From NCBI GenBank assembly GCA_041480755.1, contig JBGPAO010000002.1, forward strand, positions 1 through 46,282: a DNA stretch of 46,282 nt, given 5' to 3'. This document shows positions 26,589 to 36,963 of the stretch, piece after piece. Below the pieces are notes generated by a model. The model saw nothing but the letters and a program-made list of their open reading frames with translations. It searched no databases and was not told where the DNA came from. Made by a program: the position numbers and the translations under genes. Position 1 is the first letter of the stretch; every line of letters begins with the position of its first letter. Origin of the DNA: Bacteroidia bacterium. GTDB taxonomy: Bacteria; Bacteroidota; Bacteroidia; Bacteroidales; SM23-62.

Positions 26589-27665
26589 ATGTTTGAAGAC
26601 GAACTGCCCGAACAACCTGGTGTCCATGAACCCAACCGGATCACAGAGGATGAATTGTCCGAACAATCTGAACTTTATGAACACTATCGGATCATAGTGG
26701 ACAAAGGCCAGCAGCCACTTCGCATCGATAAGTATCTGTTTAACCGTCTCCCGCAAACTTCGCGTACGCGAATCCAGAATGCCGCAATGGCAGGGAATAT
26801 TCTTGTTAATGAAAAATCTGTCAAATCAAATTTCAAAGTCAGGCCTGAAGACATAATCAGTATTGTCCTGCCGCATCCGCCAAGAAAAACAGAAATAATA
26901 CCGGAAAACTTACCTCTTAATATCATTTATGAAGATGATGATTTACTGATTATCAATAAGGAAGCCGGTATGGTAGTGCATCCGGGAATCAGCAATTTTA
27001 CAGGTACAATGGTGAATGCCCTGTATTATTATTTTAAAGACCTCCCCTTGTTCAAAAGCGGGGATATAAGGCCGGGACTGGTTCACCGCATCGACAAAAA
27101 TACTTCAGGCATCCTTGTTGTGGCAAAAACTGAGTTTGCTTTGAACCACCTTGCCAACCAGTTCTACTACCATAAAATAAATCGGATATATAATGCTTTG
27201 GTATGGGGTATACCTGCCAGCAGTGAGGGTACGATTGAAGGAAATATAGGGCGGAGCCAGAAAGACAGGAAAAAAATGAAGGTTTATCCGGGTGGCCTGC
27301 ATGGAAAACCCGCAATAACCCATTACAAAGTTATTGAAGAACTGGGCTATATAAGCCTTGTCGAATGCAAGCTTGAAACAGGCAGGACCCATCAGATCAG
27401 GACTCATTTCGAATACATTAAACATCCCGTGTTTAATGATGAAGTTTACGGCGGTGACAGGATCATTAAAGGAACCACCTTTACGAAGTACCGGCAATTT
27501 GTAAAAAATTGTTTTGAGATCATTCCCCGCCAGGCCCTCCATGCCAAATCACTTGGCTTCATCCATCCCCGCACCGGCAAGGAAATGTTCTTTGATTCAG
27601 ACCTGCCGGATGATATGAAAAGAGTGATTGAAAAGTGGAGGAAATACATCATTGGAAGAGCGTGA
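26589..27665 (+). CDS. rluD: 23S rRNA pseudouridine synthase, RluD family
   Basis: It has an S4 domain (RIDKYLFNRL...) and the RluA-family catalytic motif HRIDKNTSGILVVAKT, plus GRTHQIR. Confidence 0.9.
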   Translation: MFEDELPEQPGVHEPNRITEDELSEQSELYEHYRIIVDKGQQPLRIDKYLFNRLPQTSRTRIQNAAMAGNILVNEKSVKSNFKVRPEDIISIVLPHPPRKTEIIPENLPLNIIYEDDDLLIINKEAGMVVHPGISNFTGTMVNALYYYFKDLPLFKSGDIRPGLVHRIDKNTSGILVVAKTEFALNHLANQFYYHKINRIYNALVWGIPASSEGTIEGNIGRSQKDRKKMKVYPGGLHGKPAITHYKVIEELGYISLVECKLETGRTHQIRTHFEYIKHPVFNDEVYGGDRIIKGTTFTKYRQFVKNCFEIIPRQALHAKSLGFIHPRTGKEMFFDSDLPDDMKRVIEKWRKYIIGRA

Positions 27666-27701
27666 GGCGTGAAGCGTGAATCGTAAGTCGGGGGAGTCGG
27701 G
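27660..27701. repeat. Heptamer array I (GCGTGAG GCGTGAA GCGTGAA TCGTAAG TCGGGGG AGTCGGG)
   Basis: Six consecutive 7-nt units read directly from the sequence. The first unit contains the rluD TGA stop codon. Confidence 0.75.
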
Positions 27702-27744
27702 AGAAATGTTAAACTTGAAGCAGAGAGCGAAGGTCGGGAAACTT

Positions 27745-27835
27745 AATGATGATTTATGAGTGATGAATTATGAGTGATGAGAACAGGGGGCAAAGAGCGG
27801 AGAGCGGAGAGCGGAGAGCGGAGGGCGGAGGGCGA
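27745..27835. repeat. Heptamer array II: 13 in-phase 7-nt units (5x ANTNATG, 2 transition units, 6x AGRGCGR)
   Basis: The units are AATGATG ATTTATG AGTGATG AATTATG AGTGATG AGAACAG GGGGCAA AGAGCGG x4 AGGGCGG AGGGCGA. Phase is unbroken and the plus strand is purine-rich. Confidence 0.85.
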
Positions 27836-27998
27836 AGAAATGACTAAAATGACAAATGACTGAAATTCGGCGGAAGAGATGGCGAATAGAATAAAGACAG
27901 GAAAATTGAACCAAAAGAAAAGCAAACTGGAAGACATAAAACCTGTTATAAATACAGTAACAGCAAAAAAAACATAATTTTAAATTTAAATATTCGCT

Positions 27999-28047
27999 GC
28001 TCTATGCTCTTAGCCCTAAGCTCTCTGCCCCATGCCCCATGCTTCAG
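27999..28047. repeat. Heptamer array III (GCTCTAT GCTCTTA GCCCTAA GCTCTCT GCCCCAT GCCCCAT GCTTCAG), inverted relative to array II
   Basis: There are seven units with consensus GCYCYNN, the reverse complement of the AGRGC core of array II. It ends in the 14-mer GCCCCATGCTTCAG, which also occurs at 36943..36956. Confidence 0.85.
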
Positions 28048-28084
28048 AAAAAAGTTATAATTTTATGAGTTGAATTCAGATTCG

Positions 28085-29071
28085 ATGAAGAAGAACATCG
28101 CAATTATAACAGGAGGCGATTCCTCTGAGATCGTGATTTCCCTCAAAAGTGCTGAGCAGGTCCGTTCATGCCTGGATCCGGGGAGATATAATACATTCAT
28201 CGTTTTTATAAAAAACAACGACTGGCATGTAAATCTTGATGGCGGTGAACAAACCCCGATTGATCGTCATGATTTTTCTTTTAAAACCAGAGGGCATAAA
28301 ACAAAATTTGATTATGCGTTTTTTGCCATGCATGGTCCTCCCGGTGAAAATGGAATACTGCAGGCCTATTTTGATCTCCTGAATATTCCATATAGTACAT
28401 CAGGTGTGCTTCCTCTGGCGCTTACATTTAACAAATATGTGTGTAAGATATTAATTAGCAGTGCGGGGATAAATGTACCTGTGGCAGTTCTTATTAGAAA
28501 GAATGAACAGTTTAAAGCAGAGGAAATTCTTGCTAAAACAGGAGTGCCCTGTTTTGTAAAGCCAAACCGCGGTGGTTCCAGTTTCGGGATTTCCAGGGTA
28601 AATGACCCGGCTGATCTGGAAAGGGCGATTGTTATAGCATTAAAAGAAGATACAGAGGTCCTGGTTGAGGAATATATAAAAGGTTCAGAGCTGACATGCG
28701 GTCTGGTTAAACTTAAAGCTAAAGAACTAATTTTCCCGGTTACTGAAATTGTCAGCAAAAAGGAATTCTTTGATTATGAAGCCAAATATACCTCCGGAAT
28801 GGCCGATGAAATAACTCCCGCACGTGTATCCAAAAAAATATCCTCAAATTGCCAGGCCATCTCCTCCCGGATCTATTCCCTTCTAAACTGCTCAGGAATT
28901 GTCAGGATTGATTTCATCTGCAGTGATAATAAGCCATATTTCCTTGAGCTGAATGGAATACCAGGGATGACAAAAGAAAGTATCGTCCCCCGGCAGATCC
29001 GTGCCTCCGGTCTTACGGAATCTGCGGTGTATGAGATGATTATCAAAGATACTTCCGGCTGGACCGGGTAG
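28085..29071 (+). CDS. ddl: D-alanine--D-alanine ligase
   Basis: It has MKKNIAIITGGDSSE, the FAMHGPPGENG motif and an ATP-grasp domain (CFVKPNRGGSSFGISRV, LELNGIPGMT). I prefer the ATG at 28085 to the TTG at 28070. Confidence 0.9.
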   Translation: MKKNIAIITGGDSSEIVISLKSAEQVRSCLDPGRYNTFIVFIKNNDWHVNLDGGEQTPIDRHDFSFKTRGHKTKFDYAFFAMHGPPGENGILQAYFDLLNIPYSTSGVLPLALTFNKYVCKILISSAGINVPVAVLIRKNEQFKAEEILAKTGVPCFVKPNRGGSSFGISRVNDPADLERAIVIALKEDTEVLVEEYIKGSELTCGLVKLKAKELIFPVTEIVSKKEFFDYEAKYTSGMADEITPARVSKKISSNCQAISSRIYSLLNCSGIVRIDFICSDNKPYFLELNGIPGMTKESIVPRQIRASGLTESAVYEMIIKDTSGWTG

Positions 29072-29106
29072 TTCTCGGTTCAGTAGCCCCTGACTGGCAG
29101 GCAGGG

Positions 29107-29176
29107 GTTCCGTGTTCCGGGTTCCAGGTTCTAAGTTCCGGGGTCCGGGTTCCAGGTTTAGAGTTTAGAGTTTATT
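29107..29176. repeat. Heptamer array IV (GTTCCGT GTTCCGG GTTCCAG GTTCTAA GTTCCGG GGTCCGG GTTCCAG GTTTAGA GTTTAGA GTTTATT)
   Basis: Ten in-phase 7-nt units fill the spacer between the convergent ddl and M28 peptidase stop codons. They are preceded by two looser units (GTTCTCG GTTCAGT) and a small hairpin (CCCCTG-9 nt-CAGGGG, 29087..29107). Confidence 0.85.
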
Positions 29177-36282: not shown

Positions 36283-36381
36283 TTTTGTAGTTTTTTGGTT
36301 ATAGAAATAAACTATCGCTAAACATTAATGTCAGAAACATCGAATTATCGTAAGTCGAAGGGATTTTTTTTTTCATGGAGT

Positions 36382-36451
36382 TAAGAGCTGAGGGCGGAGA
36401 GCAGAGAGCTAAGAGCCAAAAGCAAAGAGCAGAGGGCTTAGTGCATAGAGC
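36382..36451. repeat. Heptamer array V (10 units, consensus NNAGAGC)
   Basis: The units are TAAGAGC TGAGGGC GGAGAGC AGAGAGC TAAGAGC CAAAAGC AAAGAGC AGAGGGC TTAGTGC ATAGAGC. They lie about 90 nt upstream of the four-helix-bundle gene. Confidence 0.85.
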
Positions 36452-36539
36452 CAATAATTGTAATATGTTTTATAACATGTGTAAAGAAAGCGATTTGAGT
36501 TAATACTCTGGATTAAAAGTCATATTAAATAATATAAAA

Positions 36540-36902
36540 ATGTCAACCTTTAGATTTGAAAATCTGGAAATCTGGAAATTCGCTATTGAAGTGACGATTA
36601 AACTTCTGGATATTGCTGATTTCATGGAACAGAAGAGACTGTTTGGATTTTCCAATCAGCTAAGAGACGCAGCTCTCAGCATTACTAACAATATAGCTGA
36701 AGGTTCAGGATCCTTTTCGGATAAAGAATTTGGAGTATTTCTAAACTATTCAAGAAGATCTGTCTTTGAATGTGCAAATATCATATTTGTACTATGGTTT
36801 AAACATTATATCAGCGAAGAAATAAAATCACAAAGGCTAAGGGAACTTGACCTTCTCAGCAAACGCATCACAGCCTTCCGTAAAAGTCTAAAGCTCCAAT
36901 AG
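36540..36902 (+). CDS. Four-helix-bundle protein (23S rRNA intervening-sequence protein / Avd-like family, TIGR02436/PF05635 type)
   Basis: It is 120 aa and has the family hallmarks FENLEIWKFAIEV, QLRDAALSITNNIAEGSG and RRSVFECANI. Confidence 0.8.
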   Translation: MSTFRFENLEIWKFAIEVTIKLLDIADFMEQKRLFGFSNQLRDAALSITNNIAEGSGSFSDKEFGVFLNYSRRSVFECANIIFVLWFKHYISEEIKSQRLRELDLLSKRITAFRKSLKLQ

Positions 36903-36907
36903 TCTTC

Positions 36908-36963
36908 GCTCTTAGCTCTTCGCTCTTCGCTCTTAGCTCTTCGCCCCATGCTTCAGGCTTCAA
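36908..36963. repeat. Heptamer array VI (8 units, GCTCTTN then GCCCCAT GCTTCAG GCTTCAA), inverted relative to array V
   Basis: The units are GCTCTTA GCTCTTC GCTCTTC GCTCTTA GCTCTTC GCCCCAT GCTTCAG GCTTCAA. The array starts 5 nt after the four-helix gene stop codon. Its last units overlap the gcvP stop codon and final codons on the opposite strand. Confidence 0.85.

Follow-up and report, generated by a model that had tools for sequence, protein, structure and literature searches.

The intervening sequence (IVS) in the 23S rRNA of Coxiella burnetii is a 428-nt element with a 28-bp stem that contains an open reading frame (ORF) of the PF05635 family and is cut by RNase III (PMC4990558). ORF-less 23S rRNA IVSs have been published for Salmonella and Yersinia, and PF05635 genes have been reported wedged into operons (PMC3936711). 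Proteins of this 'intervening sequence' family are abundant, and what they do is a puzzle. Heptamers are the commonest long simple-sequence repeats (LSSRs) according to the summary of Mrazek (2007) given in PMC4679880, and inverted GGGAATC pairs adjoining stop codons in Xanthomonas (Rehm et al. 2015, PMC4692102) and paired heptanucleotide arrays in Geobacter metallireducens (PMC2700814) have been described. Catalogues of such inverted heptamer arrays beside stop codons, covering several phyla, give neither an origin nor a function for them, and our literature search found no paper linking the PF05635 family to heptamer arms outside rRNA. Here, we describe the spacer between rluD and ddl in a 46,282-nt stretch (contig JBGPAO010000002.1, positions 1 to 46,282; hereafter the window) of an uncultured member of Bacteroidales from freshwater and other sediment metagenomes.

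The rluD-ddl spacer was found to contain two inverted arrays of 7-nt units at the gene junction (left arm 27745-27838, right arm 27997-28047) with no gene between them. We propose with moderate confidence that a heptamer-armed hairpin cassette with a PF05635 four-helix-bundle gene formerly occupied this junction and that the spacer is what remains of it after loss of the gene. The reading draws on the orthologous junction of related genomes, where filled, inverted, nonsense-mutated, arms-only and scar states form a series that ties the array and the PF05635 puzzles together. The comparison was based on the window, 167 loci from relatives (L001-L167) and contigs from public runs; Ddl-based scans gave 160 loci. 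Arrays were called with Tandem Repeats Finder and unit phase was determined by cutting the sequence into 7-mers. Chance levels were taken from shuffled sequence for the motifs and from 2000 mononucleotide shuffles for the alignments of loci. The features of the spacer, its flanking genes and a gene-bearing sibling locus in the window are as follows.

26589-27665, + strand: rluD, 23S rRNA pseudouridine synthase (Pfam PF00849 and S4 domain).
27659-27703, + strand: array GCGTGAG GCGTGAA GCGTGAA TCGTAAG TCGGGGG AGTCGGG, including the 11-mer ATCGTAAGTCG at 27680-27690.
27714-27733, + strand: CTTGAAGC AGAGAGC GAAGG, of an inverted-repeat pair, paired in the predicted minimum-free-energy fold.
27745-27781, + strand: ANTNATG units with a 14-nt super-period, the degenerate outer left arm (Tandem Repeats Finder, alignment).
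27783-27838, + strand: left (5', G-rich) arm ACAGGGGGC AAAGAGC (GGAGAGC)3 (GGAGGGC)2 (repeats, alignment).
27838-27866, + strand: AAATGACT(A/G)AAAT short repeats, also present in the orthologous spacers of L001 and L089.
27867-27996, + strand: A-rich non-repeat core (loop), without detectable similarity to cassette interiors or PF05635.
27997-28047, + strand: right (3', C-rich) arm, conserved in position in L084, L001, L087, L167 and L092.
28058-28065, + strand: TAATTTTA box, 20 nt before the ddl ATG (alignment of relatives).
28085-29071, + strand: ddl, D-Ala-D-Ala ligase (Pfam PF07478/PF01820).
36347-36963, + strand: sibling cassette locus, with the left motif at 36347-36357, the left arm at 36374-36451 and the right arm at 36903-36963.

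The spacer measures 420 nt (27666-28084) and lies outside 23S rRNA. The TGA stop codon of rluD (27663-27665) falls inside the first heptamer unit, and the array at 27659-27703 looks as if seeded from the last rluD codons. Repeats were called at 27659-27684 (AGCGTGA), 27747-27781 (period 7/14), 27794-27838 (AGAGCGG, 6.4 copies) and 27997-28030, and a single 7-nt phase was found throughout 27745-27842 and 27999-28047. The right arm consists of the seven units GCTCTAT GCTCTTA GCCCTAA GCTCTCT GCCCCAT GCCCCAT GCTTCAG, the last two of which make up a 14-mer, GCCCCATGCTTCAG (28034-28047), shared with the sibling locus. On the left side, 27714-27733 is the outer complement of right-arm GCTCTCT ... GCTTCAG (28015-28047) minus both GCCCCAT units, and the ANTNATG part, with its ATGAGTG-type units, aligns with the reverse complement of GCCCCAT GCCCCAT GCTTCAG. 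Local alignment of the two arms with each other gave a score of 18.5, compared to a maximum of 16 in the shuffles, and in the RNA fold predicted for the spacer the left arm is paired with the right one (-99.6 kcal/mol, z -2.3; z -3.35 for a slightly shorter stretch). The stem is imperfect, with about 71% complementarity, and the region 27839-27996 that it encloses is 51% A, compared to 29% in the window.

An ORF or remnant of PF05635 was not detected in 27666-28084 by tblastn with the four-helix-bundle proteins of the window and L003 (E >= 0.45), and two small ORFs in the spacer had no Pfam match, in agreement with the preliminary description of this DNA, which had noted the lack of a four-helix ORF. 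Because no PF05635 gene lies between the arms, the spacer is classed as a derivative of the cassette and not as a member. The core had no look-alike in the sequence index that was searched, and Rfam gave nothing at the gathering threshold across the window; for the spacer at E <= 1 it gave a chance snoRNA match only.

The sibling locus at 36.35-36.96 kb is flanked by ssb and gcvP, and its arms (Tandem Repeats Finder: 36384-36451 and 36903-36944) enclose an ORF (36540-36902) that belongs to PF05635 (E 1.6e-22); the closest solved structure to its product is XCC0516 (2GSC; E 3.8e-10). The right arm overlaps the stop codon of gcvP (36953-36955), which sits inside a GCTTCAG unit. Orthologues of this locus were found at the ssb-gcvP junction of L163, L164 and L165. 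In the 46,282 bases of the window, ATCGTAAGTCG occurs only at 27680-27690 and 36347-36357, and GCCCCATGCTTCAG only at 28034-28047 and 36943-36956, in each case on the + strand, compared to 0.00 and 0.02 occurrences expected from shuffles, the latter even with one mismatch allowed. Within the window each motif occurs exactly twice, in the same order at both loci, with spans of 368 and 610 nt. Formal alignment of the two loci showed similarity in both arms above all shuffles: 55 nt of the left arms (score 25, shuffle maximum 20) and 58 columns of the right arms (score 28.5, shuffle maximum 16). Between the arms nothing aligned. The loci have the arm unit type and the edge units in common, and the motifs, arrays, phases and spans of the preliminary description were all recovered at their coordinates by Tandem Repeats Finder, 7-mer cutting and motif search. 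Its treatment of the motifs as separate terminal sequences, i.e., element ends, did not hold, since both are in-phase heptamer units and the left 11-mer is specific to the strain (see below). The sequence TATCGTAAG is conserved at ssb-gcvP among orthologues with 78-90% protein identity, and GCCCCATGCTTC is kept in the window and L164 and is partial in L163 and L165. One candidate explanation, that the right 14-mer is kept only as a -33 promoter element of ddl, was dropped, as the same units stand at the gcvP stop without a promoter.

The same junction in relatives provided the evidence on the history of the spacer. Within the clade of the window (Ddl identity 74-98%), the spacer was always a gene-less heptamer mosaic that differed in each species. 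In L084 it comprises approximately 22 units in one array, all of the same sense, and L089 and L088 have other heptamer mixtures. In L001 and L087, a gene-less loop of other heptamers lies between the left arm GAGCATGGGGCAYGGGGCATGGG and the right arm CTCCATGCCCCATGCTTCCG (arms that may also be written GAGCATGGGGCAYGGGGCATGGG ... CTCCATGCCCCATGC). The neighbouring clade (L092, L003, L091; Ddl identity 64-66%) was found to have the organization rluD-(CATGGRG)n-PF05635 gene on the minus strand-(CYCCATG)n-ddl, with a gene 59% identical to the cassette gene at 36.5 kb in the window. The right arms of the gene-bearing L092 and the gene-less L001, L087 and window align in heptamer phase from the inner to the outer edge, and the alignment ends ...CCATGCTTC[A/C] just before the -7 box of ddl. 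The right arm of the window also aligns in phase with L003 and with the window's own cassette, matching the neighbouring-clade cassette to ...CCATGCTTCA. The right 14-mer is exact in L084, has one mismatch in L001 and L087 and two in L089 and L092, and is kept in place across species at 74-85% Ddl identity. A second, nested cassette had been considered at this junction and was not needed, because in L088 and L089 the AGAGC-type and CCATG-type units form a continuum of single-substitution steps.

The PF05635 genes at the junction of the neighbouring clade look like pseudogenes in the making. In L092 an in-frame stop codon (L092:1622-1624) lies inside the conserved family motif GLSxTNNIAEG (GLS*TNNIAEG), and L003 and L091, from separate data sets, share an in-frame stop at KTEL*NDLEF (L003:199-201, identical in L091). 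The two nonsense mutations are independent.

Loss of the gene was seen repeatedly elsewhere. A Rikenellaceae-like clade has rluD followed by a convergent TPM gene, and in this clade the site 3' of rluD was filled, as rluD-(GATTTGC)n-PF05635-(GCAAATC)n, in 12 loci, carried arrays only in approximately 16 loci and showed nothing obvious (scar only) in approximately 15 loci. The filled, arms-only and scar states are interleaved on the host tree, which requires at least 7 changes in gene presence, and PF05635 protein identity follows host identity (rho 0.42, p 5e-4). Comparison of L023:1467-1960 with L024:1487-1971 showed that the 500-nt segment of arms plus gene is inverted between them at 82% identity, within collinear flanks of 85-87% identity; it follows that the segment was inherited and that recombination of its arms with each other then inverted it. 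Palindromic scars were found at empty rluD/TPM junctions (GGATATTTGCGAATCC, L030:2055-2075; AGAATTTGCAGTTTC, L042:1955-1975; three units plus TTTCGAATTC, L056:1930-1975). From their sequence, these scars look like stems collapsed onto the outermost units, as if the stem-loop had been deleted across its base.

Pairs of arrays also showed an association with the gene. Reverse-complement partners made up 13 of the 27 adjacent array pairs, compared to 5% of random pairs. All 10 array pairs 400-570 nt apart enclosed a PF05635 gene, and three pairs only 26-56 nt apart were gene-less hairpins. In every one of the 15 inverted pairs examined, G exceeded C in the 5' arm and C exceeded G in the 3' arm (window 27783-28047 and 36374-36956; L003, L020, L024, L026, L037, L043, L046, L048, L050, L077 and L092). 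This polarity reads the same on either strand and is thus a real property of the hairpin, with a p value of only about 0.03, since there are just five independent unit types. The orientation of the gene among related loci was + in 6 and - in 5.

Further side observations concern the distribution of the gene. L037 has host genes closest to L048 and L050 (Ddl 93-94%), and its cassette protein is 80-86% identical to those of L026, L028 and L046, compared to 69-70% for L048 and L050; at this site the cassette of L037 may have undergone replacement or exchange. Among 22 PF05635 genes in approximately 1 Mb of loci, all except the window's own were located directly 3' of rluD, in a sample whose centring on rluD-ddl biases this count. 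The genes 3' of rluD form two subfamilies (the L092 group and the L020-L077 group) that are not alignable by blastp, and would go back either to a single insertion of great age or to a preference for this site.

Comparison with a sister strain (L166/L167; 93-97% nucleotide identity over 20 kb) showed how the arrays change. The spacer has the same layout in both strains, and every length difference between them is an array indel, of exactly 7, 28 or 7 nt. The left arm has 7 units in the window and 3 in the sister strain, and the ANTNATG part has one unit fewer in the sister strain. In the core, 7 of 158 nt are substituted (approximately 95% identity), which is close to the regional rate. At the left motif the sister strain reads GTCGTGAGTCG, within AGCGTGA GCCGTGA GTCGTGA GTCGGGG, and differs at 2 of the 11 positions; its cassette locus reads TATCGTATGTCGGAGGG. 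Because the sister strain reads otherwise at both the spacer and the cassette locus, the exact left 11-mer is strain-specific, and its sharing within the window would be due either to a short gene-conversion patch or to parallel change, not to an element terminus. That the outermost units have persisted at both loci is consistent with edge units being the slowest to change, and the decay series shows whole-unit slippage in arrays while edges persist. A target-site duplication was not visible at the rluD-stop or ddl-leader borders, which themselves consist of array units, the empty sites of relatives being too diverged for a comparison.

As a separate observation, L083:1-90 carries a right array end and a ddl leader (GCTCTATGCTTAAGTAAAAGTTCTAATTTTAGG) other than those in window 27990-28090, despite 98% Ddl identity, whereas L167 (Ddl 97.6% identity) carries the version of the window. 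Local recombination or very fast turnover may explain this difference. The convergent spacer between ddl and an M28-peptidase gene (29105-29174) is filled stop-to-stop by GGGTTCC and GTTTAGA arrays without an inverted partner, and the corresponding spacer of the sister strain (L166:1330-1425) holds a different mix, of GTTTTTA and GTTTAGA units.

Our proposal for the history of the spacer is as follows. The lineage of the window would once have had a PF05635 gene at this junction, in a cassette that was long resident there. The gene would then have been lost, leaving the G-rich arm, the C-rich arm and an unrelated A-rich loop. The arms would keep changing by replication slippage in 7-nt steps, with the outermost units slowest to change, so that old edge units such as GCCCCAT GCTTCAG could survive. 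Arrays would spread until they meet selected sequence, which on the left is the stop codon of rluD and on the right the region of the ddl promoter. In a read-through transcript of rluD, the two arms would come together in a long imperfect stem, in the manner of rRNA IVS stems. This stem may end the rluD message or be excised from it, and equally may be neutral. The free turnover of sequence and layout among close relatives argues for little constraint on the spacer, and the locus is probably a relic whose function is slight or absent. The locus adds a case history of cassette decay, not a new kind of element. Of the two interpretations offered in the preliminary description, that of an empty or decayed copy of an element family is thus supported, by the filled orthologous junction, the homology of the right arms, the decaying gene and the repeated loss elsewhere.

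Several findings weigh against this history. The stem of the spacer is weaker than that of the gene-bearing locus in the window (z -3.7) and much weaker than that of the intact L092 cassette (z -8.7). No PF05635 coding trace or cassette interior is left in the spacer; when the core was aligned locally with the gene and with the interiors of cassettes, no match reached significance (the best one was a shared TGTTATAAA, p 0.09). The exact left 11-mer, as described above, is strain-specific. In the Ddl tree, both clades and two array-free lineages fall into one group with 100/100 support, a grouping that in itself speaks for the relic, but with one gene-bearing and one gene-less clade and the order of the four subclades inside this group unresolved, one loss and one gain are equally parsimonious. 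Arrays without an inverted partner or a gene exist both in the window (29105-29174) and in L084, and for this reason arrays do not need a cassette. Finally, all comparison sequences are metagenome assemblies, which are prone to breakage in heptamer arrays. The contigs of L002/L090, L082, L083, L085, L086 and L164 begin or end within such arrays, and public-run contigs placed on the spacer locus showed depth spikes at arrays. Among the metagenome contigs placed on the spacer and cassette loci, the arrays recurred in many unrelated contigs, assemblies broke at arrays and no clean empty-site joint was seen. Cassettes and arrays are therefore likely under-counted in metagenome-assembled genomes.

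Some of these findings also speak for the best of the other explanations, in which the hairpin came first: the inverted arrays would be simple-sequence repeats born by slippage at gene ends, the lineage of the window would never have had the gene, and genes would settle secondarily in loops, as in L092; the spacer would then be a site that was never occupied and not one that decayed. Gene-less inverted heptamer pairs by stop codons are published for Xanthomonas (PMC4692102) and Geobacter (PMC2700814), and rRNA IVSs replace pre-existing tetraloops (PMC4990558). The arrays of the spacer begin within the last rluD codons and were seemingly seeded there, partnerless arrays are present (29105-29174; L084) and parsimony does not decide between gain and loss in the clade of the window. 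By raw count, a 5-taxon subclade is explained more cheaply by 2 gains than by 3 losses. However, the gene segment of the Rikenellaceae-like clade diverges in step with its host, which fits inheritance and loss and not repeated arrival, the inverted pairs 400-570 nt apart always contain the gene, and the nonsense mutations at the same site show decay as the direction of change. We regard the hairpin-first explanation, the main rival, as rather unlikely.

A still smaller chance is given to the spacer being a selected regulatory device, in which the arrays, whatever their origin, would be kept between rluD and ddl as a stem for termination or processing, as a G-quadruplex or as a multi-site platform to which a heptamer-binding protein attaches. 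A canonical terminator is absent between the two genes, and in array-free relatives the spacer contains a plain hairpin (L004, z -5.6). Compared to shuffles, folding is better in most of the orthologous spacers, the G-rich arm follows directly after the stop codon and is on the sense strand, as in Xanthomonas, and it is the 5' arm in 15 of 15 inverted pairs. Selection for such a device is nevertheless hard to reconcile with sequence, unit type, copy number and even inverted layout that vary freely among close relatives, with the many relatives that have an array-free spacer of 40-110 nt and with the weak z-scores of L089 and L088. Within the spacer, a scan for sigma-70 promoters and intrinsic terminators gave no match, Bacteroidota promoters being outside its range. 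The TAATTTTA-type box is conserved as TAnnTTTA in every relative, and we take it to match the -7 element of Bacteroidota (consensus TAnnTTTG). Since this -7-type box lies just past the arrays, ddl has its own promoter there.

The other interpretation in the preliminary description, a non-autonomous miniature inverted-repeat transposable element (MITE), which would be a short copy that ends in the fixed termini ATCGTAAGTCG ... GCCCCATGCTTCAG and is mobilized in trans by the mover of the cassette, is highly improbable: the two loci, 8.7 kb apart, do share motifs, order and strand far above chance, plus an arm unit type, but the motifs are array units, the right one inherited in place across species and the left one belonging to the local array, the interiors of the loci share nothing, neither a target duplication nor a transposase was seen, the window holds no second copy of the spacer at high identity, and the sister strain differs by 7-nt slippage in situ, not by presence or absence of a whole element.

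A side observation on the gene-bearing loci is that a near-palindrome, ATGTTTTATAACAT (or ATGTTTAATAACAT), is conserved approximately 60-75 nt upstream of the window-type four-helix-bundle genes (window 36465-36478; L003:~565-580; L092:~1838-1853; also L164 and L165). It could be their promoter or operator. The core of the spacer has a similar TGTTATAAATACA at 27944-27956, and its similarity to the near-palindrome was not significant.

A wider proposal can also be made, which we put forward tentatively and consider possible rather than probable: gene-less inverted heptamer hairpins at bacterial junctions, including the Xanthomonas and Geobacter pairs, would largely be footprints of PF05635 cassettes. 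In the life cycle envisaged, a cassette would arrive at a junction, be inverted through recombination of its arms, lose its gene to nonsense decay and then its interior to deletion, and end as a short palindrome once the stem has collapsed. In Bacteroidales, the 3' side of rluD would be a landing place that is either long-lived or preferred.

Compared to the described systems, the cassettes resemble the ORF-bearing 23S rRNA IVSs (Coxiella burnetii S23p, Leptospira) in that a PF05635 gene of approximately 120 amino acids lies between complementary, stem-forming termini. As with these IVSs, the cassettes are 400-600 nt long, are sporadic and occur in gene-bearing and gene-less stem-loop versions. 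They differ in that the rluD-ddl locus lies between two protein-coding genes, and not within helix 9, 25 or 45 of 23S rRNA, and has no ORF in the copy of the window, and in that the stems are imperfect and nested arrays of 7-nt units. Like MITEs and the repetitive extragenic palindromic (REP) and bacterial interspersed mosaic element (BIME) sequences, the spacer is short, non-coding, intergenic and hairpin-forming. It differs in having no defined terminal inverted repeat and in changing in place by slippage, and neither a target duplication at its borders nor a near-identical copy in the window was seen. The Xanthomonas and Geobacter pairs share with the spacer intergenic 7-nt tandem units, a convergent partner on the other strand and a copy number that varies by strain, as well as a G-rich sense-strand array located 0-50 nt from a stop codon or overlapping it, the TGA of rluD being inside unit 1. 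The units here are of the AGRGC and CATGGRG types, in mixed vocabularies and not one G3 unit, and whereas the papers on those pairs name no gene family, the relatives studied here hold a PF05635 gene between the arms.

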